In this document: piece by piece, positions 9,364 to 27,538 of the stretch
How positions within the stretch are numbered: the first letter of the stretch is position 1
How the letters are laid out: the number at the start of each line of letters is the position of its first letter
The notes under the pieces: generated by a model
What the model was told of the DNA's origin: nothing
The model's database searches: none
Seen by the model: the letters and a program-made list of their open reading frames with translations, nothing else
DNA from: Escherichia phage cardinal
Reading direction: 5' to 3' (one strand)
Sequence record: PQ567651.1
Length of the DNA stretch: 64,000 nucleotides
Position numbers and translations under genes: made by a program

Positions 9364-9364
9364 A

Positions 9365-11829: not shown

Positions 11830-11875
11830 AAACCCTCCTATTTATATATCAAGAAACACAAAAGAATAACATCTA

Positions 11876-12124: not shown

Positions 12125-12133
12125 ACTTCCCTC

Positions 12134-12686: not shown

Positions 12687-12699
12687 TTTATTATTCTCC

Positions 12700-13208: not shown

Positions 13209-13211
13209 ATA

Positions 13212-13664: not shown

Positions 13665-13675
13665 TACACAAATCC

Positions 13676-13852: not shown

Positions 13853-13866
13853 CTTCTTTTCCTCTT

Positions 13867-14082: not shown

Positions 14083-14083
14083 G

Positions 14084-14542
14084 TTATGCTCCATTAAAGA
14101 CGGGGCGTGTAGCATTACGTTCATCATTCACTGTAATAAGGTTTTTCATAACCATAACACCCTGAATATAGCCTAACCAACGATGGCGTTTGGTTTCAGA
14201 CATACCATTACACCCATCCTGAATTTCATTCAACATCCACAGTAAGTGGGAAGCACCTGTTTCACTGGTATCTGGATCTTCTACAGAACTAAGAATCGTT
14301 TCATAGCGTTCACAAATTTCTGGGTAGAATTCATAATCCTGTTGTACATCTCGCATTTCTCGAATGAAGTGACGAGCAATAGGCTTCCCACGAAAATATT
14401 CATTGATGAAATCAATAACACACATCTCACTGCCTGTCACCACGGAAGGCGTTCCTATGTTAAATTGAACACTCACACCGCATTCTTTTACAAGATTATG
14501 TACACGCTCAGTGTTAGCAAGATACAAAGATACAGTTTTCAT
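14084..14542 (-). CDS. hypothetical protein (first gene of leftward block)
   Basis: 152-aa ORF next to the large non-coding region. Confidence 0.5.
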   Translation of the reverse strand: MKTVSLYLANTERVHNLVKECGVSVQFNIGTPSVVTGSEMCVIDFINEYFRGKPIARHFIREMRDVQQDYEFYPEICERYETILSSVEDPDTSETGASHLLWMLNEIQDGCNGMSETKRHRWLGYIQGVMVMKNLITVNDERNATRPVFNGA

Positions 14543-15000
14543 TTACACCTCTCATTAGTAGTTTGTTATGCGCGATATTGCATATTTTATGGAACACAGT
14601 GTACAGACATTTCTATTCAATGCAAGCATTATTTGCATCTTATAAATTTACGTCTCATGCCACACATCATACAGCGTCTTTTCATCTATTACAAGAACAG
14701 CAACCTAGGAACATCATTAATGGAGGGATTAGTATAGGGATTAGTATAGGATTTCCCTATCAATTATTCTATATATACCTAATATTTTTAACACACCCCT
14801 TTGTACATAATATAGACAAATAAATATCTATGCCACAAAAATTTTCTGGTATACCCGATTTATTTCGACACACCCCCTTTTCATAAGCGTAAAGTCAATA
14901 ATATCAATAACTTGCCGCAAAATACTGCTCGCTTGCGAGAGGTGCTTAACGCGATTTTCAGCGCCCCCCCGATTTCTGCCGACCGTCCCCCTCAAATATC

Positions 15001-15036
15001 AATGAGAATAATTATCATTTGCATTATCATTCAATG
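15001..15036. promoter_or_regulatory. Fur-box-like palindromic site(s)
   Basis: aatgagaataattatcatttgcattatcattcaatg; overlapping (n)AT(a/t)AT hexamers. Confidence 0.4.
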
Positions 15037-15198
15037 ACTTATAAGACTTTTGATTATTTTCTGAGCAAGAAAGGTACTACTCACAACAAAACAGATAAAT
15101 TCTAAGTAAATCAATGGCTTGGCAAGTCTAAACATCTATATACACCTTGCCAAATGAAATGATCTGGCGTGAAATAGTGCCACCCGTGGAAGATAGCT

Positions 15199-15217
15199 GA
15201 TAATGATTATCATTTGC
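15199..15217. promoter_or_regulatory. Fur-box-like 19-mer
   Basis: GATAATGATTATCATTTGC vs E. coli Fur consensus GATAATGATAATCATTATC (16/19). Confidence 0.45.
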
Positions 15218-15450
15218 ATACTTTCTGTACTATAAAACCGACTAAAAATCAAGATAATTCTGATTTATTGCGCTTTTAAGAGAGTAGGCTCAACAAATAA
15301 CAACAAATGAGGTATGTTATAGGGGCAATAGTATGAAAAATCATCTATTCAGATGTAAATAATTTTGCGCAATAGTGGTAATATTTTTCTTGACAAGAAA
15401 GATTTCTTTGTGTGCACATAGCGCCCCTGGAGGGTGGCGCATTATGATCA

Positions 15451-15504
15451 TCAGTGTCATTATTCATTTCAGTGTCATTATTCATTTCAGTGTCATTATT
15501 CACC
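15451..15504. repeat. tandem direct repeat, 3 x 18 bp
   Basis: tcagtgtcattattcatt repeated three times head-to-tail. Confidence 0.9.
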
Positions 15505-15604
15505 ATGTTTATTATTGCATAGCTTATTATATGGAGCTTATATTATAGCCAATGTTCTAAACATTAGCTAATAATAACGCACCGCAACAATGTAAGGGAT
15601 ACAA

Positions 15605-15745
15605 TATACCATGTATATTGTTGCGCTTGCAATTGTTGCAAGCTACATAAGCACAAATAATAACTATCGGTGATGGTTATTATGTGGGGTGTGTAGTTGC
15701 GTTATTATTAGCCGCCTATGTGTCCGGCATAGGCTGCTAATGATA
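15605..15745. repeat. inverted-repeat cluster
   Basis: gcttgcaa-ttg-ttgcaagc palindrome and gccgcctatg...cataggctgc hairpin. Confidence 0.6.
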
Positions 15746-15779
15746 CGCTTGCGAATTATATTTCTTGTTATAGTTATTG

Positions 15780-16203
15780 TATGGAATGATTACTACATGA
15801 AATGGTTACTGTATGAAATGATTATCTAAGTAATAGATAGGAAGGTAAAGATTAGATCATAAATAGATAGGATGTGAATTATTTAGTAATGTTACTAACA
15901 ATTTAATAGTTACTTTGTGCAACAATTCGATAGATTATAATTGTAGTTTTAAGGGTTAGATAGATTATATTTAGCTTAGTAATGATTTATATTAGTTATT
16001 ATTGTTTAATACAATGTTATCAATGAGATAGTAACAGTAAGTTATAAATAAAGGTGAGATAATTAGTTTTAATTTAGTTAGATAACTTATTATTTTATAG
16101 GTTAGATGGTCTTAAGTTAAGAATGATTCTCATTATTGCATTATGCAATTTATTGCATAAATAATCAGCTATAAATAAGAATGATTATCATTTAAGAGGA
16201 AAG
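15780..16203. repeat. AT-rich iteron-like region with Fur-box-like sites near 3' end
   Basis: repeated tagatag(g) and atgaaatg(g/a)tta motifs; agaatgattctcattattgc and agaatgattatcattta near 16120-16203. Confidence 0.5.
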
Positions 16204-16402
16204 ACAAGAAAAAGGCTGTTTTTGCCAGGTAATTACATGAAGAAATTAAAAATAAGCGGTCTAAAACACGTTGTAAGCGCCTTATGATCTTCATGGTATG
16301 GTTGTTCATCTGCTCCTTGATTAGCTCGATACCGCGATCTATTCACTTTTTTCGGTGAACGTTTTTGATAGGTAAAAGCTATCATCTTTATTTAGGTAAA
16401 AA

Positions 16403-16430
16403 GAAAGGGCGCAATAAGCGCCCTTGTTTG
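16403..16430 (-). terminator. hairpin terminator after gene 16440-16811
   Basis: aagggcgc-aataa-gcgccctt plus T-run on minus strand. Confidence 0.5.
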
Positions 16431-16439
16431 AAATGTTAT

Positions 16440-16811
16440 TTACTGATAAGCTGGATCGTTTGTTATATCAATCCAATGAGATAAATTAATTTTATTTTTT
16501 GCTTTCATTTTCTCGATCAAACGTTCGGCTAATGTTTCTGAACGAATATAAACATGCTCGCTAAAATCTTGCCCCGTTTCTTCGTCGATCATTTCTCTAT
16601 ATTCAACCTTGCCGATAAACGCATAAGTTTTACCCGTGTACCAGTTATGTAAATGGATCTCGCATTTATAATCATCGCTATACCCTTCGGTTGTTCTAAC
16701 TTCAACCAAGTCACCTTTAAACACTGATAAGCACCACATAGGATCACGATCTACAGCGCCGTTAAAATCTTTACCGTTTACAGTAGCCGCCAGGTTGATG
16801 ATATTGCTCAT
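16440..16811 (-). CDS. hypothetical protein
   Basis: 123-aa ORF with GAGGAA RBS. Confidence 0.55.
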   Translation of the reverse strand: MSNIINLAATVNGKDFNGAVDRDPMWCLSVFKGDLVEVRTTEGYSDDYKCEIHLHNWYTGKTYAFIGKVEYREMIDEETGQDFSEHVYIRSETLAERLIEKMKAKNKINLSHWIDITNDPAYQ

Positions 16812-16886
16812 GGTGATTCCTCGTTTACCGTTTAAAATGATTTGCCCTACACGATAACTATAAGTTAACAGAGGCTATAAAGCAAG

Positions 16887-17117
16887 TTATTTTTCAAAAA
16901 ATTTTTCTACTGTGATATTCTTCCCAGTGGGATTAGCTACTTTCAAAATTTTATCATGTACTGGACGCCCAAAAGAATAAGATCCGTATACAGTAAACCA
17001 ATAATCACCGTCAGGCTGTACTATCACCGCTGCATAGGGTACGCCTTTTTCGTTATTGCTGACAGAATAGATCACATTGCCGTTAATAGCTTCAGCGCGT
17101 TTAATTTGTTCGATCAT
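16887..17117 (-). CDS. hypothetical protein
   Basis: 76-aa ORF preceded by promoter/stem-loop cassette. Confidence 0.55.
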   Translation of the reverse strand: MIEQIKRAEAINGNVIYSVSNNEKGVPYAAVIVQPDGDYWFTVYGSYSFGRPVHDKILKVANPTGKNITVEKFFEK

Positions 17118-17134
17118 GATATGATTCCTATATT

Positions 17135-17195
17135 GAGCGGGAAACCACTTCCCGCCTTACGTGATACATCTTAGTATAAGGGCGATCCGGTGTCA
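17135..17195 (-). promoter_or_regulatory. promoter + 5' stem-loop cassette
   Basis: minus strand: TTGACA-N17-TAAGAT then GGCGGGAAGTGGTTTCCCGC hairpin before RBS. Confidence 0.6.
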
Positions 17196-17317
17196 ATAGG
17201 TAGAATTGTAAAGATTTGATAGTTTATTTCTTTGATGTTTTGTTATTTGATAGGTGGAAGCTATCAATATATAATAAGATCGTCCGGTGATTATCTTCCC
17301 CTGCTCCCAGGTGCCGC

Positions 17318-17352
17318 CCGTTCAATAAGCATAACAAAAAACAGGACAAAAA
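17318..17352 (-). terminator. hairpin terminator after gene 17373-17576
   Basis: acagg...cctgt stem followed by T-run on minus strand. Confidence 0.4.
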
Positions 17353-17372
17353 CAAGCCCTGTTTTGTAAAGA

Positions 17373-17576
17373 TTAGATGATCTGCATATCCTCCACGATA
17401 ATTTCTAATTTCCAAACAAGATGATCTAAGCTCCCTGATAAAAATGATTCCGATACATAACCGCCATCTGACACCGTAGCAAGGATCTCGCCATTTGCTT
17501 GCTCTTTGATTTGAACATCCAGGCGGTTAGCCTTTGCTTTATTCAGGACGGCGATCAGGCGGTTAGCTGTAGTCAT
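17373..17576 (-). CDS. hypothetical protein
   Basis: 67-aa ORF with GGAAGGAAA RBS. Confidence 0.5.
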   Translation of the reverse strand: MTTANRLIAVLNKAKANRLDVQIKEQANGEILATVSDGGYVSESFLSGSLDHLVWKLEIIVEDMQII

Positions 17577-17590
17577 GGTGTTTTCCTTCC

Positions 17591-17654
17591 AGTTGTGAGC
17601 GGCACTATTGCCGCCCTACGAAATACATTCTACCCGATTTATAATTGTTGTCAA
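17591..17654 (-). promoter_or_regulatory. promoter + 5' stem-loop cassette
   Basis: TTGACA-N16-TAGAAT then GGGCGGCAATAGTGCCGCTC hairpin. Confidence 0.55.
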
Positions 17655-17655
17655 A

Positions 17656-17925
17656 CTATTTTTTCAAGCTCGACCAGTCAAAACACGGGGCGATCTCGTT
17701 AAAACTTGTACCATGTAAAGCACATAATTTTTTAGCAATAGCCGCCGTAACCTGGCGTTGTACGCGCGGATCTGCTACTGATTGGAGAAAATAGGCGGTT
17801 TTATATGTGATCATGCTTTCGCCTGTTTCCTTGTTAACGTGGTGCACGGTTTTAGCCTTATCATCTTTTACCAGGGTGTAACCGGATTCGATGGCCTTGA
17901 TTGCAACGTCCAAAGATATTTTCAT
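17656..17925 (-). CDS. hypothetical protein
   Basis: 89-aa ORF. Confidence 0.5.
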   Translation of the reverse strand: MKISLDVAIKAIESGYTLVKDDKAKTVHHVNKETGESMITYKTAYFLQSVADPRVQRQVTAAIAKKLCALHGTSFNEIAPCFDWSSLKK

Positions 17926-17972
17926 GATTTACCTCTTTATTGACGGCGGGGAATACTCCCCCGCCTTATTAA

Positions 17973-18143
17973 TTACTCTTCATCGTCGCCGTTATAGTAT
18001 TCAATGCCGTTTTCATCGGTTACAGTAATGTTAACGCCACCGATAGCAACACGATCACGGGCAAACGTCATGGCTTCATTTAAATCTTCAGACCAAAAAA
18101 TATTGTGACCTTTGCGCGATACATAAAACATAGTTGGGATCAT
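17973..18143 (-). CDS. hypothetical small protein, 56 aa
   Basis: ATG after cassette at 18166-18226; not in track. Confidence 0.45.
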   Translation of the reverse strand: MIPTMFYVSRKGHNIFWSEDLNEAMTFARDRVAIGGVNITVTDENGIEYYNGDDEE

Positions 18144-18165
18144 GATTTGTTTCTCTTCTGTTGTG

Positions 18166-18226
18166 AGCGGGAAACCATTTCCCGCCCTATGTGATAAACT
18201 TTACTACGTTGTTTGCCTAGTGTCAA
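18166..18226 (-). promoter_or_regulatory. promoter + 5' stem-loop cassette
   Basis: TTGACA-N17-TAAAGT then cacatag-GGCGGGAAATGGTTTCCCGC. Confidence 0.6.
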
Positions 18227-18227
18227 A

Positions 18228-18512
18228 TTATTTTTTAATGTTTTGCCCTACAAAATTGATCACTTCCTTAAGCTGTTTCTCAGTCATGATCGTGCCTGGT
18301 AATTCTTCTTTGATTTCTTCCGGTAGATAGATATTACCGCGCCAGGTTAATAAACAACCGTTTTGATCTTCGCAGATAGAATAAGAGAAGATCCACTCAT
18401 TATCATTCTCAAGCTCCCAAAAGCACAAAAAATCTTCTTTCCCTAAATTTTCAACGGTTAAACATAATCCGCGACGTGCTGCATAGTTGGAAAGTGCTTT
18501 TGTGATCTTCAT
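18228..18512 (-). CDS. hypothetical protein
   Basis: 94-aa ORF. Confidence 0.5.
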   Translation of the reverse strand: MKITKALSNYAARRGLCLTVENLGKEDFLCFWELENDNEWIFSYSICEDQNGCLLTWRGNIYLPEEIKEELPGTIMTEKQLKEVINFVGQNIKK

Positions 18513-18532
18513 AGCTTATCTCTTCTGTTAAG

Positions 18533-18594
18533 GCGGGGAAACCATTTCCCCGCTCTATGAGATACAATATACTATCTGTTAGGTGTGCTGTCAA
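18533..18594 (-). promoter_or_regulatory. promoter + 5' stem-loop cassette
   Basis: TTGACA-N17-TATATT then GCGGGGAAATGGTTTCCCCGCC. Confidence 0.6.
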
Positions 18595-18918
18595 TCAATA
18601 ATCTTTAAGATTTTCTACATTTACAAAAGTGCGTTTATTTTCTAAGTTTTCGCCGTACCATTGCCCCATGTTGATTTCTGCGGTGCGCAACCAGGACATG
18701 CCGCGCTCTATCTTTTTACTTGCAATCTCGATCCGGCTTTTGCATAGTGCTTTCGCTTGCAATGTAAAAACACTATTGCCCTGTAATGCTTCCAGGTCAT
18801 CATGTGCAAGGCGATACTCTTTAAAGCCTGATTCTATCATTTCAATAGCATCAAGTAAACGCGCGCGATGATAGAAAAAATCAGAGTTATCCAAATAAAC
18901 ACCGATCACAGATTTCAT
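18595..18918 (-). CDS. hypothetical protein
   Basis: ORF from ATG (MKSVIGVY) with AAAGGG RBS. Confidence 0.5.
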   Translation of the reverse strand: MKSVIGVYLDNSDFFYHRARLLDAIEMIESGFKEYRLAHDDLEALQGNSVFTLQAKALCKSRIEIASKKIERGMSWLRTAEINMGQWYGENLENKRTFVNVENLKDY

Positions 18919-19247
18919 AATTTTACCCTTTTGTTTGCGGCCTTTGCCGTTTTCAAGATATAGTTTAAAGCATAACAAAAAATTGTCAAGCCTTTAAAGC
19001 GTACAACTATAAAACCTATTAAAACACAATGTATAACAACATGGCTATAGTAGCAATACAACATAAAGCCATGCTTGTTTTCCTTCCTTCCTCGTATGCT
19101 GGATTTATTACGCTATATTGTACGGGAATAATTTTCATGCTGTTTCCTTAATGTCTTAAAACGTGGTTTACAATAGAAACAAGCATACAGAAGAAAAAAG
19201 ATCCTGTCAATAAGATACCGAAAAATAAATGTAAATAGGGCATGGTT

Positions 19248-19550
19248 TTACTCCTTAAAAAAATCATTGACAATTAAACTGATAACGCCCAGCACCAGAT
19301 CACCAGGTAGTGCCGCGCTTTCGTTGTTGCTTGTTTGCACTTCCTCACTAGTACCAGCACGATAGATTGCATGGTAAGCAATAGTATAATAACCTTTCGT
19401 TATTTCTTTAAGATTAATGATTAGCACGTTATTTGTTTCATCTTGAAACAATTTAGCGGTGATAGTATTGTTTTCTTTTACACTATCGACTTTTATTGAT
19501 GGATCATTTACACCAGAAAAAAGAAAAAACGTTTTAGCTATGCCGTTCAT
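19248..19550 (-). CDS. hypothetical protein
   Basis: 100-aa ORF with AAGGAGA RBS; TTGACA-N15-TATAAG upstream. Confidence 0.5.
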   Translation of the reverse strand: MNGIAKTFFLFSGVNDPSIKVDSVKENNTITAKLFQDETNNVLIINLKEITKGYYTIAYHAIYRAGTSEEVQTSNNESAALPGDLVLGVISLIVNDFFKE

Positions 19551-19597
19551 GTAGTTCTCCTTTGTTGTGTGTATCTTATAACGTGCTTTCTATGTTG

Positions 19598-19999
19598 TCA
19601 ATCTTTTATCTCGGTGCATTTTGCCAGGGTATACGTTGCAAGTGCTGACACTAGTTTTTCATTGCTACGATCTGCGGCTGTACTGTGTACTTTTTGAATA
19701 CTTTTTAACCACGGCGTAAAATTTTGAGTAGTCAGCACACTGGTAATAATTTCACATGGCACATCTTCATTTAAGCCGTTAACAATAGATTTATCTATTT
19801 TTGCCGTTAGTTGTGTAACAGCACCATAAGCGATCATGTGTGAATCCTCCATGATTTCATCGGGGATCGCATTATTAATAAGCATGACGTTTTCCATTGC
19901 ATCAACGGCGCTTAATTCTGCTACTGTGGAGGATATCGCCGCGCTAGATGTTCCAACCATGCCAAAAGAGATTAAACCAGCGATCAATAATTTTTTCAT
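19598..19999 (-). CDS. secreted/periplasmic hypothetical protein
   Basis: N-terminal signal peptide MKKLLIAGLISFGMVGTSSAA. Confidence 0.55.
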   Translation of the reverse strand: MKKLLIAGLISFGMVGTSSAAISSTVAELSAVDAMENVMLINNAIPDEIMEDSHMIAYGAVTQLTAKIDKSIVNGLNEDVPCEIITSVLTTQNFTPWLKSIQKVHSTAADRSNEKLVSALATYTLAKCTEIKD

Positions 20000-20007
20000 T
20001 TCTTGCC

Positions 20008-20190
20008 TCATATATGTTTTATTGAGATTATATTGTCACTATATACAACGTTTTTCAACGTGTCAATAAAAATCTTATTGCCTTCAATCCCCAGGATCAC
20101 GCCGCTAGTTATGAAGCCATATTGATCACGATATCGGGCGCATAACCTTTGCCCCTGGGCTAGTGCCTTGCTTATTTCGTCTAATTTCAT
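20008..20190 (-). CDS. hypothetical protein
   Basis: 60-aa ORF with AGGAG RBS. Confidence 0.45.
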   Translation of the reverse strand: MKLDEISKALAQGQRLCARYRDQYGFITSGVILGIEGNKIFIDTLKNVVYSDNIISIKHI

Positions 20191-20283
20191 TTTTAAAGCT
20201 CCTGTAAAGCCGTCTAACGTTGATTTATAGGCTTATCCTGGCGTTACCATTGCCTATGGGTAACAAGCCTCTATATAAGCTAA

Positions 20284-20308
20284 AAGGGCGCTTATTGCGC
20301 CCTTTTTT
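20284..20308 (-). terminator. bidirectional hairpin terminator
   Basis: gggcgc-ttatt-gcgccc flanked by T-runs on both strands. Confidence 0.5.
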
Positions 20309-20309
20309 G

Positions 20310-20447
20310 TTATTCGTTCCAGTATCTTTTTGTGCTGCGATCTCTTTTTGTTTTGTTCCGCTTGTCGCCTTTTTTGGTGATCTCTTCGTTCCAATTTTTA
20401 CGCGCCTTGCTGCGGTTGAATTTTTCGATCTGCTGTGATGCGTTCAT
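20310..20447 (-). CDS. very basic small protein, 45 aa
   Basis: MNASQQIEKFNRSKARKNWNEEITKKGDKRNKTKRDRSTKRYWNE; AAGAGGAAG RBS. Confidence 0.4.
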   Translation of the reverse strand: MNASQQIEKFNRSKARKNWNEEITKKGDKRNKTKRDRSTKRYWNE

Positions 20448-20462
20448 GTTTCTTCCTCTTAA

Positions 20463-20822
20463 TTACGCCACGTTATGCTGTTTTGCCAGGATTACGATCA
20501 TGCTTGCAATATATAACCAATAATTTTCCCGCTCACGGGTAACGGTTGTTTCTTTGCTTGTTTCTTTTATGTACTTCCATTCAATTAACAAGTGATCGAT
20601 CTCGTTATAATCAAAAGCAATATTGATTTCTGACGGTAAACCTTGTAACCAGGAGGCTATCGCCTTGATCATGTTGTGATTGTAACGTTTTTGATTATCG
20701 GGATACCAGTATTCAGATGTAAAACGGCGCATCAGTTCGGTGATCTTTTCTTTTTCTGTTGTAGTACCCTCAAAAGAAATAGCCGACACAATGTAAGTTT
20801 TAATTGCTTTTACTGATTTCAT
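20463..20822 (-). CDS. hypothetical protein
   Basis: 119-aa ORF. Confidence 0.5.
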   Translation of the reverse strand: MKSVKAIKTYIVSAISFEGTTTEKEKITELMRRFTSEYWYPDNQKRYNHNMIKAIASWLQGLPSEINIAFDYNEIDHLLIEWKYIKETSKETTVTRERENYWLYIASMIVILAKQHNVA

Positions 20823-20842
20823 AATCTTATCTCTTTATTGTT

Positions 20843-20901
20843 GGCGGGAAACCATTCCCCGCCGTTGTTGTTACTTTACTTATAAATGATGCTACTGTCA
20901 A
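20843..20901 (-). promoter_or_regulatory. promoter + 5' stem-loop cassette
   Basis: TTGACA-N17-TAAAGT then GGCGGGGAATGGTTTCCCGCC. Confidence 0.6.
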
Positions 20902-20908
20902 ACGGATA

Positions 20909-21079
20909 TTATTTGTTTTTTAACGTTAATGTTCCCAGCTTATCAGCGTGACGCAGACCAGGAAAGATCCATTTTCCTGATTCATCTTTTACCGGGGCTT
21001 TAAGCGTAGCGCCCAGGTTGGCGGCATTAACTTTACGTGCAACGTTGCGAGCGGCTTCACGGGTAGCGAAAGTGATCAT
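20909..21079 (-). CDS. hypothetical small protein, 56 aa
   Basis: AAGAGGAAAA RBS; not in track. Confidence 0.4.
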   Translation of the reverse strand: MITFATREAARNVARKVNAANLGATLKAPVKDESGKWIFPGLRHADKLGTLTLKNK

Positions 21080-21103
21080 GATGTTTTCCTCTTCTCTTTG
21101 TTA

Positions 21104-21165
21104 GGCGGTGGGCTATTCCACCGCCTTGATGAATACAGTTTACTTTATTTTTGCAGTATTGCAAG
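21104..21165 (-). promoter_or_regulatory. promoter-like + 5' stem-loop cassette (variant)
   Basis: GGCGGTGGAATAGCCCACCGCC hairpin with TTGCAA-N16-TAAACT upstream. Confidence 0.45.
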
Positions 21166-21170
21166 CGGTT

Positions 21171-21386
21171 TTATGAAATAAATGTCAAAGTAAAATCATA
21201 ATCTTTTGACAGTTTATATTGCACCTTGTTACCGTATATGTCACCTTTACGTAAAGATCCGCGAATACCTATTACATCCTTTACATCTTTAAGATTTTTC
21301 ACGCCTGTAATGTCTTTATTGAAATGATCGTGATCAGAAAATAAAACCTGCTTTGCATTTTTTAACAGTGTGCGGATATTAGCCAT
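21171..21386 (-). CDS. hypothetical protein
   Basis: 71-aa ORF. Confidence 0.5.
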   Translation of the reverse strand: MANIRTLLKNAKQVLFSDHDHFNKDITGVKNLKDVKDVIGIRGSLRKGDIYGNKVQYKLSKDYDFTLTFIS

Positions 21387-21405
21387 TTGATAATCTCTCT
21401 TACTA

Positions 21406-21464
21406 GGGGCGGCACTATTGCCGCCCTATGCATTACATTTTACTGATTTTAGTTATCTTGTCAA
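21406..21464 (-). promoter_or_regulatory. promoter + 5' stem-loop cassette
   Basis: TTGACA-N16-TAAAAT then GGGCGGCAATAGTGCCGCCCC. Confidence 0.6.
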
Positions 21465-21472
21465 TATTATTT

Positions 21473-21700
21473 TTAGTTTAATTGATCCAGGCACAACAAG
21501 CGATCAACATTCAGATCGGTTAGGCTAATCGTTGGCACCTGGTAGGATTCGATGTACTCAACGCTCGACCATTGCCCGAAGTTAGCGACCGCCCAGCTAT
21601 TCAAGGAAGAGTGAAGATCATCCCCTTTCTTCTCGGTGATAACTGCTACTACCTGGGAGCTTCCAACCGTACCGGATACGCGAACAATAACGATAGCCAT
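21473..21700 (-). CDS. hypothetical protein
   Basis: 75-aa ORF. Confidence 0.5.
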   Translation of the reverse strand: MAIVIVRVSGTVGSSQVVAVITEKKGDDLHSSLNSWAVANFGQWSSVEYIESYQVPTISLTDLNVDRLLCLDQLN

Positions 21701-21721
21701 AATGATAACCTTTCTTTGATT

Positions 21722-21781
21722 TGGCGGGAAACCATTTCCCGCCCTATGTGATATATCTTACACTAATTTAAAACGTTGTCA
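21722..21781 (-). promoter_or_regulatory. promoter + 5' stem-loop cassette
   Basis: TTGACA-N16-TAAGAT then atatcacatag-GGCGGGAAATGGTTTCCCGCC. Confidence 0.65.
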
Positions 21782-21877
21782 AATTATTTTCTATTTCTTC
21801 CGTAATAGCCCAATTTATGATCTAAGCTAAAACGTTTTGTGAGATAGGTCGAACGATGTTTCATTTTTATGTCTCCT

Positions 21878-22117
21878 TTACATTCCAACCATAGCGGCAC
21901 GGATCGCGGTTTTACTGAACTTGAATCCGTCTGGCGTTTTATCTTGATCCATACTTTCAAGAAATAACATCATATCCCGCGCTGCGTCATTCTTATTGGT
22001 GTTAGCTGCGATAAATTCACGCGCAAGATTATAAAAACCTTCATCGTTGTTGATCCAAAGGCTTACATTCCAATGAGTTTTGTTTTTGTGACCTAAGAAC
22101 ATTTTAGATTTAGCCAT
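21878..22117 (-). CDS. hypothetical protein
   Basis: 79-aa ORF. Confidence 0.5.
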   Translation of the reverse strand: MAKSKMFLGHKNKTHWNVSLWINNDEGFYNLAREFIAANTNKNDAARDMMLFLESMDQDKTPDGFKFSKTAIRAAMVGM

Positions 22118-22140
22118 GATGTTAATCTCTTTTTCAGTGA

Positions 22141-22199
22141 GGCGGGAACTATTCCCGCTCTCGATATAAGTATTATATGCTTTTTATTCGTGCTGTCAA
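22141..22199 (-). promoter_or_regulatory. promoter + 5' stem-loop cassette
   Basis: TTGACA-N16-TATAAT then GCGGGAATAGTTCCCGCC. Confidence 0.65.
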
Positions 22200-22205
22200 T
22201 GCTTT

Positions 22206-22571
22206 TTATAAATCTTTTTTACGTTTAACATCGCTTGCATGACTGTATACAGCGATCCCATTATCACGGCAAAAACGGGAAAGATACGCGCCGCGTGAAA
22301 ACTCTTTGCCCTCCAGGTTGATAACCTTGCTAAACTCTTCCAGGGCGACGGTATCAAAATGATCCCCATAACCATATTGAAACGGAACGTTAACGACTTC
22401 AATCAGTTTACCGCCGATCTCAACGTCAACCATCAAAGAGAAATAAGTATTACCATAAGACTTTTGAAACCAGCGACGGGCGCTAATATGTACCGCTTCA
22501 ATGCTGGATAGTTCAATTTTAGCAGTGTTAGCCAGGGTAGCATAAGCAGAAACATTGATATTTTTAGCCAT
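22206..22571 (-). CDS. hypothetical protein
   Basis: 121-aa ORF with AAAGAGA RBS. Confidence 0.5.
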   Translation of the reverse strand: MAKNINVSAYATLANTAKIELSSIEAVHISARRWFQKSYGNTYFSLMVDVEIGGKLIEVVNVPFQYGYGDHFDTVALEEFSKVINLEGKEFSRGAYLSRFCRDNGIAVYSHASDVKRKKDL

Positions 22572-22666
22572 AGTCTTTAATCTCTTTTGATTAGTTAGGA
22601 GTATTCCCGATAAAAGTTATTATGCTTGTACTATCGTTCGTTGTCAATAGCACAAGACTAAAACTT

Positions 22667-22846
22667 TTAACGATAATCATCATAGGCTTTATTGACCTGG
22701 CGAATATAGCATTCAAAAGCTAGATCAATAGATTTATATTCACGGATATAATCACCATAGGAAACCACATACATTTCTATAGCTTCCTCATATGCCAGGA
22801 TGATAGAATCTAAACCTACGATCTCAGTCTTTGCAATAATAGCCAT
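22667..22846 (-). CDS. hypothetical small protein, 59 aa
   Basis: ORF downstream of cassette 22934-22989; not in track. Confidence 0.4.
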   Translation of the reverse strand: MAIIAKTEIVGLDSIILAYEEAIEMYVVSYGDYIREYKSIDLAFECYIRQVNKAYDDYR

Positions 22847-22933
22847 GCTTTTATTCCTTAGTAATGTTTCAATCTATATAAGCATTATAGCTTACTGATT
22901 TCAGGTGTCAAGTGATTTTTTATTTCACCTTAT

Positions 22934-22989
22934 GGGGCGTTGCCCCGCTTTATGTGGTACATATTACGGGGCTTGTTCGCATATGTCAA
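22934..22989 (-). promoter_or_regulatory. promoter + 5' stem-loop cassette
   Basis: TTGACA-N17-TAATAT then GCGGGGCAACGCCCC. Confidence 0.55.
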
Positions 22990-22992
22990 GCC

Positions 22993-23547
22993 TTACACAA
23001 GACAATTTTCATAATTTTTTAGGGCTTGTCTTTTTTCCTCTTCCGTCGGCATGTATGGCTGGATCTCTTCCTCTTCCAGGGTAGGCATGATTTCTTCCTC
23101 TTCCTCCTGGTCGTCCTGGTCTTCCTCTTGCGCTACTGCAACAAGTTTATTGATCTTCTCCTGGGCTTTAATCAATTTTGCATCTAGCACCATTTTAGCG
23201 GTGTTGTATACCGTCCATGCCATGCGTTTTTCTTCGTATGCTTTATCTAGTGCGGCTAATTTAGCGGGATACTCTTCCAACACCTTAAAAGCCGGATCAA
23301 TGCTGTATAAGGGATTATTTTTAGCGTCATCGCTTGGATCTGCGGCGCTTGCAATGTCAGCGTTGCCATTCGCCAGCCATCCAGGGCGAACGGATCGCGC
23401 CTTTGTGTTGCCGTTGCTCTTTGCCGCTCGATTTCCTATCTGCTCCCCGCTATACCCTACCATGTGATCGATCATGTCATCTGGTATTATGCGCGGATCA
23501 TTAGCGTCATGCTTTACCCAGGACTGGATCACATATTCACGCCCCAT
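22993..23547 (-). CDS. hypothetical protein with acidic C-terminal tract
   Basis: 184 aa; QEEDQDDQEEEEE run. Confidence 0.5.
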   Translation of the reverse strand: MGREYVIQSWVKHDANDPRIIPDDMIDHMVGYSGEQIGNRAAKSNGNTKARSVRPGWLANGNADIASAADPSDDAKNNPLYSIDPAFKVLEEYPAKLAALDKAYEEKRMAWTVYNTAKMVLDAKLIKAQEKINKLVAVAQEEDQDDQEEEEEIMPTLEEEEIQPYMPTEEEKRQALKNYENCLV

Positions 23548-23809
23548 GTTCGTTCGCCTCTTCTGTTAGTAGTTTACATACCTTAAACATGCTTGCCGCG
23601 TCTTTTGACGGTAGCCAGCCTATGCGATACACTCCAGGATCTGGATTCGTTATATCTGTTAATTGAGCGTTACGATGATTAAAAATAGTGTAACCGCCGC
23701 CAGCACGGGGATAAACATTATCTTTAAACCTGATAGCGTATCTCGCCAGGTTGAACGTTGTAGCATGTTCAAAAGCGATCACATTATCAAAAACTTTTAG
23801 AAAAAACAA
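23537..23809 (-). CDS. hypothetical protein
   Basis: 90-aa ORF, GGGGAGGA RBS. Confidence 0.5.
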   Translation of the reverse strand: MFFLKVFDNVIAFEHATTFNLARYAIRFKDNVYPRAGGGYTIFNHRNAQLTDITNPDPGVYRIGWLPSKDAASMFKVCKLLTEEANEHGA

Positions 23810-23976
23810 GATTATCCTCCCCAGCGTTTAAAGCCCGTTGCACGGTTATTTTTTAACTCTCGTTTTAGTCTCTTGCAACGGTTTACAAGTGCAAACCGTG
23901 CCGGAGTGGTAACAGTAGCGCCGTTTTTGGTGTGAATACTCATTACATATTGTTTCATAAAGTTTTATCCTATGTA

Positions 23977-24030
23977 AGCGGGAACTATTCCCGCTTTAAG
24001 ATAGCTTATCAGGTTTTAGTGCAATGTCAA
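23977..24030 (-). promoter_or_regulatory. promoter + 5' stem-loop cassette
   Basis: TTGACA-N16-TAAGCT then GCGGGAATAGTTCCCGCT. Confidence 0.55.
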
Positions 24031-24036
24031 CCGTTT

Positions 24037-24399
24037 TTATTCGTAAATTTTACCGCTTTCTACCCATACCATAACGCGGCGCATATTATCCCATGCATCT
24101 TGTCGCAGATTTAAGGCATGCAATTCTTCGGTTGTGCTCATACCTGGTACGGGCTTGCTATATGTTACAAAGAGATCGCCAGCATATTCATAAGCCAGGG
24201 TAAGATCACATTGAATCATCTTTTTAAGCATAGCATTAAGCATCATATTAGCGGCATGTTGATCACGTTTTAGCGGTAGCGTTGCGATCTGTGAGCGATA
24301 GCTTTCGATCCGTGCATCCACTGCATCACGTGGAAGATTTTTCACGTCGTCGCGGAAAGATACCAGGTTTAACATGATAGTATTGATTTGCTTGCTCAT
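24037..24399 (-). CDS. hypothetical protein
   Basis: 120-aa ORF. Confidence 0.5.
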   Translation of the reverse strand: MSKQINTIMLNLVSFRDDVKNLPRDAVDARIESYRSQIATLPLKRDQHAANMMLNAMLKKMIQCDLTLAYEYAGDLFVTYSKPVPGMSTTEELHALNLRQDAWDNMRRVMVWVESGKIYE

Positions 24400-24424
24400 T
24401 GTGTTACCCTTTCTTTGATGGCCT

Positions 24425-24484
24425 GGCGGGAAACCATTTCCCGCCCTATGTGATACATCTTATCAGATTAAAAAACGTTGTCAA
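24425..24484 (-). promoter_or_regulatory. promoter + 5' stem-loop cassette
   Basis: TTGACA-N16-TAAGAT then gtatcacatag-GGCGGGAAATGGTTTCCCGCC. Confidence 0.65.
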
Positions 24485-24503
24485 GAATATTTTTTAGATA
24501 ATT

Positions 24504-24785
24504 TTAACTATATGATCCACATTGTTCGCAGTAGTGATCATCGTCGCCATCAGCTACCTGGCTGATAAAGTGATCTACTTTTGCTTTTAGGTTATTATAA
24601 TTGTTTTCTACTTCCTTTAATCGCTCCTGATAGTAGCCCAGGGCTTTAATATACGCCGCCTCTTCTGTTTTTTCACGCATGGCTAAATTCATGCCGCGCG
24701 TATCATCATACAGCCAAAAGCCATCGGTACATTCACTCATTGAAAGGGTAGGGCTTAACTCTTTATGATTAATTACCTTGCTCAT
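24504..24785 (-). CDS. hypothetical protein
   Basis: ORF; C-terminal CEQCG motif; start uncertain (24785 or 24818). Confidence 0.45.
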   Translation of the reverse strand: MSKVINHKELSPTLSMSECTDGFWLYDDTRGMNLAMREKTEEAAYIKALGYYQERLKEVENNYNNLKAKVDHFISQVADGDDDHYCEQCGSYS

Positions 24786-25169
24786 AGTGTGCGCCTTATA
24801 GAATGATTGAAACAACAATTGCTACAGTGATCCACACTGGAACGGCTAACAAAATAGCGTTAATCGTTCCAACCGTCAAGCTGTTTTCTTTCTTGATCAT
24901 CGTTATCAACCTTTTATAAGTAATGTTATTGTGACGGTGGATTGTGGAGATCCTCACCTTTGCCCGTCCTGCATTGCGCCCTCCTTTTGTTTATTGTCGT
25001 TGTGCCTCGCCCCCCTCGACAAGATGAATAATACGCTACCAGGTGAGGAACGTCAACCCCTTTTTTAATCTTTTTTTCATTTCTTTTTTTTGCTTGCTAT
25101 CTATAAAGGAAAGGGCTATTATCTTTCTACCACGCCAACCAGGGCGCACATCAAAGAAAGGGCGATACC

Positions 25170-25436
25170 ATGACAAATACTACTTTACACCTCATGCACT
25201 CATTAGGCTGGCAAGGCGGCACGGTGCACCAGGTAGCAAGCGCAACGGGCTTAAAGGTTGAAACCGTTCTCAACCTGGGCGATCATAAGGTGGAAGAAAT
25301 AGATCATTTTGATACGTTCGCAAATGGTTATCTATGGGCTTGCAGTGGCGGCGGGGAAAGCAAGATCCCACCAGGGGCGCGGGGTGATATATATTTTTGG
25401 TTAGGTGTCCTATCCTGGCAAGAAAACAAAAAATAA
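25170..25436 (+). CDS. hypothetical protein
   Basis: 88-aa ORF with AAAGAAAGGG RBS; TTGCTA-N17-TATTAT upstream. Confidence 0.45.
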   Translation: MTNTTLHLMHSLGWQGGTVHQVASATGLKVETVLNLGDHKVEEIDHFDTFANGYLWACSGGGESKIPPGARGDIYFWLGVLSWQENKK

Positions 25437-25437
25437 T

Positions 25438-25472
25438 ATTGACAAGCCCAGGGATCGGGCTTATACTGTTTT
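25438..25472 (+). promoter_or_regulatory. sigma70-like promoter with palindrome in spacer
   Basis: TTGACA-agcccagggatcgggct-TATACT; spacer is an inverted repeat. Confidence 0.55.
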
Positions 25473-25586
25473 ACATACAGAAGAGGAAGCGCCACCCCCA
25501 CGGCGTAAAGGCGGGGCTAACATACCAGGGCACTACTGGTTGGAAGGTTGATCGCTGGTACAACGTATTTACAAAGGAGGTTAGCA

Positions 25587-26180
25587 ATGAAAAAAGTTTT
25601 TGGAGTAGGCATTAACGATAGTGCAAAGCCGATCAAAGGTTGTCGATTCTATGCAACATGGCGCAACATGTTACAACGTTGTTATAGTGAATCATATCAG
25701 GACAAAAGGCCATCTTATAAAGGTTGTAGTGTTTGTGATGAATGGTTGACGTTTAGCACTTTTCGTGCTTGGATGGAACAGCAGGATCACCAGGGAAAAC
25801 AATTAGATAAAGATATAATAACACCGGGTAATAAACTCTATTGTCCTGATCGTTGCGTATTTGTAACGCAAGAAATGAATAGTTTGTTAACAGTTACAAA
25901 GAGTAACAAAGGGGATCATCCTTTGGGTGTTTCATTTTTGAATCATAAACCATTGCCGCGCCCTTATTTAGCAACAATACGTTATAATAACGTAGTGGAA
26001 AGATTAGGGTACTATGTAGATCCTTTATCCGCTCATTTGGCCTGGAATAGGCGCAAACGTGAAATAATCATAGAGATTATTAGTAATGAAACGGATTCAA
26101 GGATCGCCGCTGGCTTGGCTTTACGTGTTGACGCTCTCGATCTGGCTTATGAAAATAAAGCGGAAATAACTTGCTTATGA
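25587..26180 (+). CDS. putative homing-endonuclease-like protein with AP2-type DNA-binding domain
   Basis: N-terminal YATWRNMLQRCY...CDEWLTFSTFRAWM and AP2-like YLATIRYNNVVERLGYYVDPLSAHLAWN; AAAGGAGG RBS. Confidence 0.4.
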   Translation: MKKVFGVGINDSAKPIKGCRFYATWRNMLQRCYSESYQDKRPSYKGCSVCDEWLTFSTFRAWMEQQDHQGKQLDKDIITPGNKLYCPDRCVFVTQEMNSLLTVTKSNKGDHPLGVSFLNHKPLPRPYLATIRYNNVVERLGYYVDPLSAHLAWNRRKREIIIEIISNETDSRIAAGLALRVDALDLAYENKAEITCL

Positions 26181-26184
26181 CGCT

Positions 26185-26217
26185 TGACAAGCGCCCGACA
26201 AGGGCGCATAATCTCTT
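26185..26217 (+). promoter_or_regulatory. sigma70-like promoter with palindrome in spacer
   Basis: TTGACA-agcgcccgacaagggcg-CATAAT; gcgccc...gggcgc inverted repeat. Confidence 0.5.
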
Positions 26218-26435
26218 ACATAGACAGGAACGCCTACCAATGGCGCTAAACTTGGTGATGATAGCCGCAGGGCATCGACAGCTATAATCGCCGGTAGCTC
26301 GTCTAAAATAAATTTGTAAAGAAATGTAAAGATAAAAATAATCGCTTGCTTTTGTTGTTGGTTATGCTATTCTTATTGTATGGCGAGGGGACACGGGAGC
26401 GCGAGACAAACACCGCCCCTGCGCGTTATTTTCTA

Positions 26436-26550
26436 AATGAGAAAATTCTCATTTGCTAATGATTCTCATTCTCTTACTGAGAATGATTATCACTTACATA
26501 ATTAAATGATAATGATTCTCATTTACAAATGAGAATGATTATCATACGCA
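26436..26550. promoter_or_regulatory. cluster of Fur-box-like palindromes
   Basis: aaatgagaaaattctcattt, aatgattctcattctc, gagaatgattatcac, gataatgattctcattta, gagaatgattatcatacg. Confidence 0.45.
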
Positions 26551-26564
26551 TACCTATAAAAACA

Positions 26565-26775
26565 CGAAATTGAACTTTTCATTTTTGATTTTTCTACGGA
26601 AAAAGGCAAAAAAACTTTAAATAAACTGGGGAATTTTTAAAAAATTGAAGTTTTCATTTTCAAAATCTGGATAGAAATACGTACAAAAACTTTAAATAAT
26701 TTTGACCAAACTTGAACTTTTCATTTTCAAAATTTGTACCCAAAAATCTGTAAAAACTTTAAATAATTTTGTACT
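26565..26775. repeat. three ~65-bp imperfect direct repeats
   Basis: units start aaattgaa(c/g)ttttcatttt... and end ...aaaaactttaaataa at about 26568, 26642, 26711. Confidence 0.8.
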
Positions 26776-27082
26776 TTTTATAAAAATGATTTTACTGTTC
26801 TGTTATAAGTAGTAGTTAAGAGATAGTATGCCTTTTAAAGATCAGATACCATAGTCAAACAAACAAATTAAATACTTTATTAACAGAGTACAGAATAATA
26901 TTTACTCTGGATATATTATTCAGAGGGTGGATTTCCGTACATGAAACCCACACCCCTTTTTATAAAAATAAAAATTTTCAAAATATCAGTAAATATCAGA
27001 TTGTGCTTTTAGATAAACAGCAAGGTCTGTATGCCATTTTCCTAAAAGATTTTGTCCTTTCCAACAGTCCTTATTTTCCACA

Positions 27083-27538
27083 TCACGATCCCACATTCCC
27101 ATTTTTGATACCATAAATAGAATCATAAGGGCTTGCCTCTACGAACTCCTTATCTGCGTAAGCGATAAGTTTATTTTTGAGATCTTCATTTTGTGTGTAT
27201 TTAAGATACAAACCACGTTTGACAATCTTCTCCCGTAAAGAAGTCCAGGTATCTTCATCATAATCTTTAACTAATCTGCCTAGACGTTTATAATATGCTT
27301 GTTCTTTTTCTCCTGTATATCTTAGATCTCCGGTTAAAATAGAAGATGCAATATTGTAATCATAAAACAAACATGCTTTTCTCCACATCATATATTGTTC
27401 CACACAAGTAAATTCGACAGAACTTGTGATAGAATTATTATACTTGGGAGCTAAAGGTTCAATAAAAGATGATAGATACCAGTTGCTAAATTCATCTTTT
27501 GCCGAGAAAAAGAACACATACTTGTCAGTAATCCGCAT
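27083..27538 (-). CDS. NADAR (YbiA-like) domain protein
   Basis: YVFFFSAKDEFSNWYLS, FTCVEQYMMWRKACLF, EFVEASPYDSIYGIKNG align with E. coli YbiA motifs. Confidence 0.75.
   Translation of the reverse strand: MRITDKYVFFFSAKDEFSNWYLSSFIEPLAPKYNNSITSSVEFTCVEQYMMWRKACLFYDYNIASSILTGDLRYTGEKEQAYYKRLGRLVKDYDEDTWTSLREKIVKRGLYLKYTQNEDLKNKLIAYADKEFVEASPYDSIYGIKNGNVGS

Follow-up and report, generated by a model that had tools for sequence, protein, structure and literature searches.

The block of small genes at 16440-26200 of Escherichia phage cardinal (PQ567651.1) was analysed within a 64,000-nucleotide stretch of this genome (the window, to which all positions refer). Our analysis indicates that the block is probably an early-gene hyperplastic region, made up of about 20 mostly monocistronic cassettes, in which a segment combining a promoter and a hairpin would serve as a linker for gene swaps. 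Raised GC content at third codon positions (GC3), together with codon usage like that of average E. coli genes, is the signature of a circulating pool of cassette genes, and continual exchange within a gene pool shared among phages fits the composition of the block best.

When searched by megablast, 16440-26200 matched 291 phage records, with Justusliebigvirus (phi92-like E. coli myoviruses) on top. The best matches, PaulScherrer, ESCO9, AV123, Paula, arall, muut and VEcB, share 94-98% identity, and the window can be assigned to the genus Justusliebigvirus in the Stephanstirmvirinae. Query coverage in the best Justusliebigvirus matches is just 74-84%, in 2-7 pieces, and the counterpart of the block in the annotated relative Paula comprises phi92 gp224-gp248, every one of which is labelled 'hypothetical'. 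These two results suggest that the block is a conserved part of the phi92-like lineage within which indels separate close relatives.

Promoter-hairpin cassettes of the array

Sixteen exact sigma-70 promoters (TTGACA-N16-18-TAnnnT) are located on the minus strand between 25056 and 17168 (8.7 kb), compared with 0.16 ± 0.39 in simulated sequences, and the remaining 55 kb holds 15 on both strands summed. Nearly every gene of the array (16405..25056, minus strand) has a sigma-70 promoter of its own. Given this dense array of consensus host promoters, the block is very probably expressed early. On the coding strand, a cassette consists, in order, of the upstream stop codon, an UP region, the -35 and -10 elements, the conserved initial transcribed sequence GTATCACATAG, a GC stem-loop, an A-rich Shine-Dalgarno (SD) leader and the ATG. 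The UP region (25 nt upstream of the -35 element) contains A-tracts and is 74% AT, compared with 60% for the block, and the consensus of the sequence after the -10 element is GTATCACATAGGGC.

Perfect GC hairpins, which the sequence-only reading had noted by eye, are indeed enriched, with 12 in 8.7 kb compared with 0.36 ± 0.64 in shuffled sequences and 0.33 per kb elsewhere; 10 of these 12 strong hairpins stand at a fixed distance after a promoter. Hairpins of class P (GCGG-N...N-CCGC) have a stem of 8-9 bp and no T-run, and start 10-13 nt after the -10 element (10-12 nt in most cassettes). Their fifth stem pair varies among G:C, C:G, T:A and A:T (GCGGGAA, GCGGCA, GCGGTGG, GCGGAGGA), and the structure is therefore conserved through compensatory change. 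The stems were counted directly; a MAFFT alignment of the leaders put several of them out of register, and no covariance model was built. An Rfam E-value scan of 14-28 kb returned nothing credible for the hairpin leaders. Hairpins of class T, with A-run/T-run flanks and tetraloops, lie between operons (for example at 1023, 2786, 16405, 20282, 28974 and 46318) and are predicted to be ordinary bidirectional terminators. The whole array contains only three T-tract terminators (16405, 17338 and 20282).

The leaders have predicted folding free energies of -15 to -19 kcal/mol (z-scores of -2.2 to -5.0), with the SD and ATG mostly unpaired and the hairpin starting about 4-6 nt from the predicted 5' end of the mRNA. 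Stem-loops at the 5' terminus, such as that of the ompA 5' untranslated region, stabilise E. coli mRNAs, a subject of the RNase E / RppH field. The cassette leaders resemble the ompA leader in having a stable hairpin a few nucleotides from the 5' end, here a predicted start, followed by an unstructured ribosome-binding region. In the whole genome of AV123, 15 promoter-plus-hairpin cassettes are present, 10 of them in the homologous block; the others share the design with unrelated stems, suggesting that the hairpin functions in expression and is not merely a recombination site.

Based on these features, a mechanism is proposed in which host RNA polymerase would fire the cassette promoters immediately after infection. 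The 5' hairpin would stabilise and insulate each mRNA, and may attenuate read-through from the upstream cassette. Since the promoter-hairpin-SD segment of ~60-90 nt is repeated before every gene, it acts as a portable homology linker: recombination inside it deletes, inserts or replaces single genes, both between close relatives and between subfamilies, and would do so with expression kept.

Exchange of single genes at cassette landmarks

Local blastn comparison with six close relatives placed breakpoints at 17351|17574 or 17648, 21144|21421, 21790|21878, 22163/22177, 22571|22840, 24038|25049 and 24470|24830, all of which coincide with cassette landmarks. Four relatives break at 24470, within the promoter 24484-24457, and muut has an additional gene inserted at the cassette 22142..22199. 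In muut, which lacks the gene 21171-21386, a chimeric cassette is found with the crossover at the -10 element (AGTAAA) between two cassettes. The crossover by which arall and muut lack 22667-22846 lies at SD/ATGGCTA (SD/CATGGCTA), and that by which muut lacks 24039-25048 lies at the -35 element (GGTTGAC) of the cassette 23976..24030.

At the site of the gene 17373-17576, the six close relatives carry ~1.7 kb (three or four genes), whereas the window carries one gene of 67 aa. The encoded protein is 100% identical in Vequintavirus (slur16, BP9) and Phapecoctavirus (phiWec190, ZCKP1); in Pectobacterium phages the identity falls to 62-64%, and in jumbo phages of 350 kb to 46-48%. At the DNA level, ~99% identity to Vequintavirus slur16 and Phapecoctavirus phiWec190 extends from the hairpin through the gene to the terminator and ends between the -10 element and the hairpin, the promoter half being that of the resident genome. 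The pattern is that of a cassette-bounded transfer between subfamilies. The exchanges as a whole indicate that the genes are horizontally mobile, with the single-gene cassette as the likely unit of mobility.

The sequence-only reading had proposed a horizontally acquired early-gene cassette. The early character, as judged from the sigma-70 array, and the mobility of the genes stand, but acquisition as a single block does not, since the array is syntenic across the genus. Comparison with relatives for presence or absence of the block, offered as a check, showed the array in all six relatives and in phi92, with just individual cassettes varying.

The predicted features of the array are listed here from right to left (strand in brackets).

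16405..25056 (-): putative early-gene cassette array (hyperplastic region), ~22 small ORFan genes; 39.8% GC, GC3 39.6%
25028..25122 (no strand): divergent promoter region at the right end of the array, containing P(-) 25056-25028 and P(+) 25094-25122
25056-25028 (-): P(-), TTGACG-17-TATTAT, which starts the leftward array
25094-25122 (+): P(+), TTGCTA-17-TATTAT, which starts the rightward unit
25170-25436 (+): rightward gene of the phi92 gp224 family, GC3 47%, followed by a composite terminator/promoter at 25439-25467
24425..24484 (-): cassette; promoter 24484-24457 (TTGACA-16-TAAGAT), GTATCACATAG, hairpin 24445-24425 (GGCGGGAAATGGTTTCCCGCC); drives 24399-24037
23976..24030 (-): cassette; promoter 24030-24003, hairpin 23996-23976 (AAGCGGGAATAGTTCCCGCTT); drives 23958-23812, 23809-23537 and 23547-22993
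22884..22989 (-): double cassette; promoter 22989-22961 with hairpin (GCGGGGCAACGCCCC), then promoter 22911-22884; drives 22846-22667
22142..22199 (-): cassette; promoter 22199-22172 (TTGACA-16-TATAAT), hairpin 22158-22142; drives 22117-21878 (DUF7249)
21723..21782 (-): cassette; promoter 21782-21755, hairpin 21743-21723; drives 21700-21473, the gene with the highest GC3 (0.57), with homologues in Phapecoctavirus and jumbo phages
21407..21464 (-): cassette; promoter 21464-21437, hairpin 21426-21407 (GGGCGGCAATAGTGCCGCCC); drives 21386-21171
21103..21165 (-): cassette; TTGCAA-17-TAAACT, hairpin 21126-21103 (AGGCGGTGGAATAGCCCACCGCCT); drives 21079-20909
20838..20901 (-): cassette; promoter 20901-20873, hairpin GGCGGGGAATGGTTTCCCGCC; drives 20822-20463 and 20447-20310
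20282..20306 (no strand): bidirectional intrinsic terminator, AAAAGGGCGC-TTATT-GCGCCCTTTT, which divides the array
18962..20066 (-): cassettes with a promoter only or a weak hairpin; promoters 20066-20038, 19601-19573, 19210-19182 and 18989-18962; drive 20011-19598, 19550-19248 and 18918-18595 (-)
18533..18594 (-): cassette; promoter 18594-18566, hairpin 18553-18533 (GCGGGGAAATGGTTTCCCCGC); drives 18512-18228
18167..18226 (-): cassette; promoter 18226-18198, hairpin 18185-18167; drives 18143-17973
17945..17965 (-): leader with a hairpin only (GGCGGGGGAGTATTCCCCGCC), preceding the gene 17925-17656
17338..17654 (-): recently exchanged cassette; resident promoter 17654-17627, hairpin 17614-17599, gene 17576-17373 (67 aa), T-tract terminator 17365-17338
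17137..17196 (-): cassette; promoter 17196-17168, hairpin 17155-17137; drives 17117-16887
16405..16811 (-): last array gene, 16811-16440 (Pfam Phage_30_8, T4 gp30.8 family), and terminator 16425-16405

One cassette built in the same way is found outside the array, at 49415-49491 on the plus strand (TTGACT-18-TAGTAT, AAGACATAGAGCGGAGGATTGTCCTCCGC, A-rich SD). It lies upstream of a gene for a TerC-like membrane protein (49492-50469), and its leader has the same motif with a fully compensated stem.

Base composition and codon usage of the block

The GC content of 16440-26200 is 40.1%, compared with 37.4% for the whole window, 37.3% for 2900-14500 and 37.2% for 31700-64000, and the block ranks within the top 8 of 1085 sliding 9.76-kb windows, with the maximum at 16551. 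The block is thus GC-richer than its neighbours, as the sequence-only reading had supposed. Its further statement that the surroundings are AT-rich holds only for the immediate non-coding flanks (14500-16440, 32.5% GC, and 26200-27080, 30.9% GC); the coding blocks next to it have an average GC content for the genome.

For comparison on the coding strands, genes were called by a simple procedure, with the cassette block designated block B and the three other gene blocks of the window A, C and D. The 23 genes of block B have a GC3 of 39.6%, compared with 29.9%, 29.7% and 28.4% in the other blocks (Mann-Whitney p=3.6e-5, 0.019 and 1.6e-7, respectively). GC1 and GC2 (first and second codon positions) are alike, and the rise therefore sits in coding DNA, almost wholly at third positions. 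Gene by gene, GC3 within the block is heterogeneous, from 0.28 to 0.57. Synonymous codon counts differ between the block and the rest of the window (chi2=355, df 41, p about 1e-51), which bears out the proposed difference in codon usage. Non-coding DNA makes up 28% of the block and 11-13% of the other blocks; the hairpins are nevertheless ruled out as the source of the GC excess, because the non-coding DNA of the block is 38.5% GC and the coding DNA 40.2%. An effect of gene length is likewise ruled out, since the genes of block A are equally small (median 83 aa) and have a GC3 of 29.9%. The complete genome of AV123 has raised GC3 in just one protein-coding stretch, the homologous region (33-39%, compared with 23-30%, in 5-kb bins).

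Relative synonymous codon usage (RSCU) correlates at 0.90-0.96 among blocks A, C and D, and at 0.58 between B and D. Compared with average E. coli genes, block B reaches 0.65 (bootstrap 0.53-0.70) and the other blocks 0.15-0.28, while size-matched subsets of block D reach at most 0.43. The codons raised in block B are CGC, GGC, AGC, CCG, ATC and ACC, and C-ending codons rise more than G-ending ones (C at third positions, C3, 21.7% compared with 14%). Those lowered are GGT, CGT, TCT, CCT and ACT, codons that host ribosomal-protein genes have in common with the remainder of the phage, and TTC and TAC are not raised but lower. With ribosomal-protein genes, the correlation gains little (0.49 for block B, 0.41 for block D). 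Since the shift is toward the codons of average rather than highly expressed genes, it appears to be a compositional signature rather than translational optimisation, an explanation that is weakened by it and is considered among the alternatives below. Relatives encode 15 tRNAs, which mostly read A-ending codons. Compensation by these tRNAs was rejected, as the use of their cognate A-ending codons is 0.41 in block B and 0.41-0.45 elsewhere.

Substitutions were polarised as third-position singletons among five genomes. In block B, 82 GC>AT and 98 AT>GC changes imply an equilibrium GC3 of 0.44, compared with 0.39 now and with implied values of 0.32-0.35 in the other blocks; under the regime of the rest of the genome, ~102 of the 180 changes, as computed from the singleton counts, would be expected to be GC>AT. 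The composition of the block is thus maintained and not decaying, and amelioration of foreign DNA is rejected, there being no GC>AT excess. Besides continual exchange, selection acting differently on early genes or recombination with a GC bias is a possible cause of this maintenance. Of the AT<->GC singletons in the block, 63% are at third positions, and the genes are therefore real genes under purifying selection. A sensitive blastn search ('distant' mode) of 16440-24400 against 5,426 complete E. coli genomes gave no match, and capture from the host is therefore rejected.

Related arrays in other phage lineages

The same layout and the same promoter-hairpin cassettes are present in rV5 of the Vequintavirinae (for example TAAACT...AAAAGGCGGGAATGTTTCCCGCC...AAAGGAAAAAGATCATG). 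The genome paper of this phage notes 88 small open reading frames (ORFs), 33 sigma-70 promoters and a gap of 2.6 kb without coding DNA (Kropinski et al. 2013, PMC3606486). For several of the small genes, the annotation gives a similarity to proteins of RB49. In the jumbo phage 121Q (Asteriusvirus), tight operons are followed by a gap of ~2 kb and then by a spaced array of 19 kb with 31 promoters, in which leaders such as TATAAT-GTTTTACATAGAGCGGGGGAATAGTTCTCCCGC and GTATCTCGTAGGGCGGCAATAGTG occur; this array is 40.4% GC and its locus 35.7%. In a T1-like siphovirus homologue, the adaptor is absent.

The cassette arrays of these three unrelated lineages are more like one another than like the genomes that carry them. 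The RSCU of block B correlates with that of the rV5 array at 0.75 and with that of the 121Q array at 0.71, both above its correlation with its own genome. Likeness to E. coli is 0.65 for the rV5 array (0.30-0.41 for its own genome) and 0.48 for the 121Q array (-0.14). It is possible, though as yet a tentative idea, that the promoter-hairpin segment is a 'universal adaptor' of a gene-exchange network among phi92-, phAPEC8-, rV5- and 121Q-like phages, and perhaps RB49, in which cassettes would circulate ready to be expressed and the pool would keep its own ~40-44% GC and codon signature in any genome, through flux or GC-biased recombination. Circulation might then proceed as mini-circles or through a factor recognising the GTATCACATAG-GCGG hairpin.

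In both rV5 (within 85001-130000) and 121Q (within 125001-170000), which are unrelated, a non-coding gap of ~2-2.6 kb directly adjoins the cassette array; the window has the same arrangement, at 14.5-16.4 kb.

Flanking regions and the HNH-like insertion

The block lies between two AT-rich regions, and a separate insertion is located at its right edge.

14543..16404 (no strand): left flank, 32.5% GC, mostly without ORFs; Fur-box-like repeats at 15004, 15199, 16118 and 16176
25561..26286 (+): 726-bp insertion; HNH-endonuclease-family ORF 25587-26180 (197 aa, GC3 31%), promoter with an internal stem-loop at 26184-26212
26287..27082 (no strand): right flank, about 31% GC (30.9% for 26200-27080), non-coding; four overlapping Fur-box-like repeats at 26453-26555

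The insertion is edged by ACCAGCGAT and ACCGGCGAT and is absent, with a clean junction, from the six close relatives. Raoultella phage Ro1, of the Vequintavirinae, carries the one close relative at the DNA level (87% identity). The sequence-only reading had seen an AP2-domain homing-endonuclease-like gene here. The sole profile match of ORF 25587-26180, which is on the strand opposite to the array, is to PHROG 953 ('HNH endonuclease'), in its C-terminal half and at positions 192-400 of 420; no match was obtained in Pfam at E<=10 (AP2 and HNH included), in NCBIfam or in a sequence search of the PDB. The stretch GVSF...YLATIRY...LGYY...A..AW is AP2-like by eye, a resemblance only, and the AP2 assignment is not upheld. 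As the insertion is missing from all six relatives, the ORF is best regarded as a mobile insertion in its own right, located at the array's edge and neither a member of the array nor its vehicle.

Clusters of Fur-box-like repeats are located in both AT-rich flanks (15004-15219, 16118-16192 and 26453-26555). Within 3 mismatches of GATAATGATAATCATTATC there are five matches (0.07 expected by chance), of which the two flanks contain four, and the 21-mer GAGAATGATTATCATTTGCAT is present four times. One example, GATAATGATTATCATTTGC, agrees with the Fur consensus at 16 of 19 positions, and at 17 of 19 on the other strand. The block had been described as bounded by such regions. Repeats do occur in both flanks, but they are shared with relatives and do not bound a mobile element as insertion-type direct repeats would. 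In addition, the left flank contains a tandem repeat of 3x18 nt at 15440-15502 (CATTATTCATTTCAGTGT), and the right flank three imperfect repeat units of about 70-79 nt at 26567-26787 (AAATTGAACTTTTCATTTT...AAAAACTTTAAATAA).

Alternative explanations for the block

A single horizontal acquisition would make the ~10 kb block one foreign segment, bounded by repeats and perhaps mobilised by the homing-endonuclease-like gene, as its distinct composition, the HNH-family ORF at one edge and the repeat-rich flanks on both sides would suggest. This history is highly improbable: the block is syntenic in all close relatives and phi92, the homologous position in AV123 is the only GC3-rich coding region of that genome, equivalent arrays exist in rV5 and 121Q, and homologues are found only in other virulent phages, with no donor among the 5,426 E. 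coli genomes. Moreover, the HNH-like ORF is an independent insertion that relatives having the block lack, GC3 varies widely from gene to gene, and the substitutions show no GC>AT excess. That the GC excess is an artefact of non-coding GC hairpins or miscalled ORFs has a practically negligible chance, even with hairpins this dense and a non-coding fraction of 28% compared with about 12% elsewhere, because the effect is specific to third positions, where 63% of the AT<->GC singletons fall, and non-coding GC is below coding GC; the ORFs also correspond to PHROG families and to annotated coding sequences of relatives.

The remaining alternatives concern the cause of the composition. If translation of the early genes precedes the build-up of the 15 tRNAs of the phage itself, selection might match their codons to the host tRNA pool, and the RSCU likeness of block B to E. 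coli genes, the like shift of the rV5 and 121Q arrays, the maintained composition and the preference of the relatives' tRNAs for A-ending codons all agree with this. Such adaptation is nonetheless unlikely, given that the tRNA-cognate A-ending codons are used about equally in all blocks, that the shift is toward average-gene codons (CGC, GGC, AGC, CCG) with TTC, TAC, GGT, CGT, TCT and ACT lower, and that the likeness to ribosomal-protein genes is only a little greater than in block D. Alternatively, the array may recombine far more than the rest of the genome, so that GC-biased repair or conversion lifts its equilibrium GC3. Frequent recombination in the array is directly evidenced, third-position divergence is 1.5-2.2 times higher, and the singleton counts give a per-site rate ratio of AT>GC to GC>AT of 0.77 compared with 0.53 (z about 2.1), in line with the higher implied equilibrium. 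This is quite doubtful: the statistics are modest (p about 0.03), GC-biased conversion is not known from phages, the codon-specific shift, greater for C-ending than for G-ending codons, is not obviously predicted, and imported alleles could mimic the signal.

Several points also weigh against the reading of the block as an array of exchangeable early-gene cassettes. No transcriptome of the phi92 group was found in the literature searched, so that the term 'early', the start sites and all the roles given to the hairpin are predictions. The class P hairpins lie downstream of the promoter and have no U-tract, which makes a terminator function doubtful here, and a wobble strand test (13 sense-strand G.U compared with 14 A.C) revealed no preference between action at the RNA and at the DNA level. 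Intergenic breakpoints are also expected from purifying selection against indels that disrupt genes; the cassette-specific evidence is therefore the chimeric junctions and not the position of the breakpoints alone. The singletons counted for the substitutions may have been imported by recombination instead of having arisen by fresh mutation. The GC3 contrast, finally, is not clean in every lineage, since the rV5 array (46.2%) exceeds the plus-strand small genes (40.6%) but equals the DNA-polymerase region (46.3%).

Comparison with known modular systems

Promoter-early stem-loops (PeSLs) were described in the T4-type phages RB49/phi1, PST and nt-1 as a sigma-70 promoter with an AT-rich upstream region and a stem-loop, located between the ORFans of hyperplastic regions, with crossovers between the -10 element and the ATG, in the hairpin loop or near the -35 element, and with five positional subclasses of which one lies downstream of the -10 element (Arbiol et al. 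2010, PMC2839356; Comeau et al. 2014, PMC4122927). The block resembles them in its near-consensus sigma-70 early promoters with AT-rich upstream DNA, adjacent stable stem-loop, SD and ATG, in the repetition of cassettes between ORFans of a hyperplastic region, and in indels and replacements between close relatives with crossovers inside the cassette. All the sequence-level features that define PeSLs are thus present. Terminator or attenuator activity of the stem-loop and excision in the form of encapsidated mini-circles are further traits of the PeSL type. The lineages concerned here, Stephanstirmvirinae together with Vequintavirinae and Asteriusvirus, are unrelated to T4, but occurrence in T4-type phages is a taxonomic limit of the PeSL description and not a mechanistic feature. 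We therefore regard the block as a likely case of PeSL-type modular shuffling outside the T4-like phages. Differences exist as well. The stem-loop stands almost uniformly just after the -10 element, unlike the five positional classes of RB49/phi1, and the stems are GCGG..CCGC preceded by the conserved GTATCACATAG instead of Gn-loop-Cn. Without a U-tract, the terminator activity claimed for PeSLs is questionable here, and a maintained codon signature like the host average is not part of the PeSL description.

The single accessory genes with their own promoter, atypical composition and presence/absence variation also recall the morons of lambdoid phages (PMC2839356). Morons, however, also bring a terminator, lie dispersed among late operons in temperate phages and are assumed to insert by illegitimate recombination without conserved flanks (PMC2839356), whereas the array of this virulent phage is tandem and co-oriented, has three T-tract terminators in all and has conserved flanks that are the crossover sites. 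The small-ORF region of rV5 is alike in that a non-coding gap lies beside spaced small genes with sigma-70 promoters; the available part of the rV5 paper (PMC3606486) lists promoters and terminators and contains no promoter-hairpin cassette, shuffling role or codon shift. In the literature searched, the term PeSL is used for T4-like phages only, and the cassettes are not described for the phi92, phAPEC8 and rV5 groups (Stephanstirmvirinae, Vequintavirinae), the original phi92 genome paper being outside that scope. An adaptor common to several lineages and a maintained codon signature appear to be new.

Proteins of the block and other features of the window

Only 3 of the 23 block proteins match Pfam (Phage_30_8, DUF7249 and DUF1033), all of them families without known function. 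A search of NCBIfam recognised nothing, and PHROGs assign the block proteins to families of unknown function. The 184-aa cassette protein encoded at 22993-23547 (minus strand; GC3 0.49) has an extremely acidic C-terminal third (EEDQDDQEEEEEIMPTLEEEEIQPYMPTEEE) and is, from composition alone, a candidate DNA mimic or anti-restriction protein. Among the database matches, 19 'Campylobacter phage' records (host C. jejuni; for example MG065645.1 and MG065689.1) are 94-95% identical to the block and are probably mislabelled or contaminant genomes.

Elsewhere in the window, a group I intron at 43396-43671 on the plus strand (Rfam RF00028, 72.3 bits against a gathering threshold of 50, E=2e-16) divides nrdD, which encodes the anaerobic ribonucleotide reductase, into two ORFs (42584-43450 and 43692-44663); in ESCO9 and muut, nrdD is unbroken (1800 nt). 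The UvrD/Rep-type helicase ORF at 37435-40248 (plus strand; 937 aa) is 2775 nt long in muut and PaulScherrer and 1737 nt in ESCO9 and AV123, and the PaulScherrer record annotates an intein in it. At 27539-28936 (minus strand), a 465-aa protein with five CapR-homology repeats and a T5orf172 domain is encoded next to a NADAR/YbiA-like gene (27083-27538), and its counterparts among relatives range from 990 to 1404 nt.

Implications for large coliphages

The anomaly in composition marks a mechanism, in which a short regulatory module would double as a recombination linker for swaps of early genes, and the genes swapped in this way are the likeliest to encode host-takeover and anti-defence functions. 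The combination of raised GC3, dense sigma-70 promoters and 5' hairpins would provide a simple computational signature of early accessory arrays, which could be used on therapeutic phages of the phi92, phAPEC8 and rV5 groups, nearly all of whose genes are annotated as hypothetical. The presence of the PeSL-like design, partly with the same sequence, in three other lineages would mean that it is a general pathway by which genes move between large coliphages.

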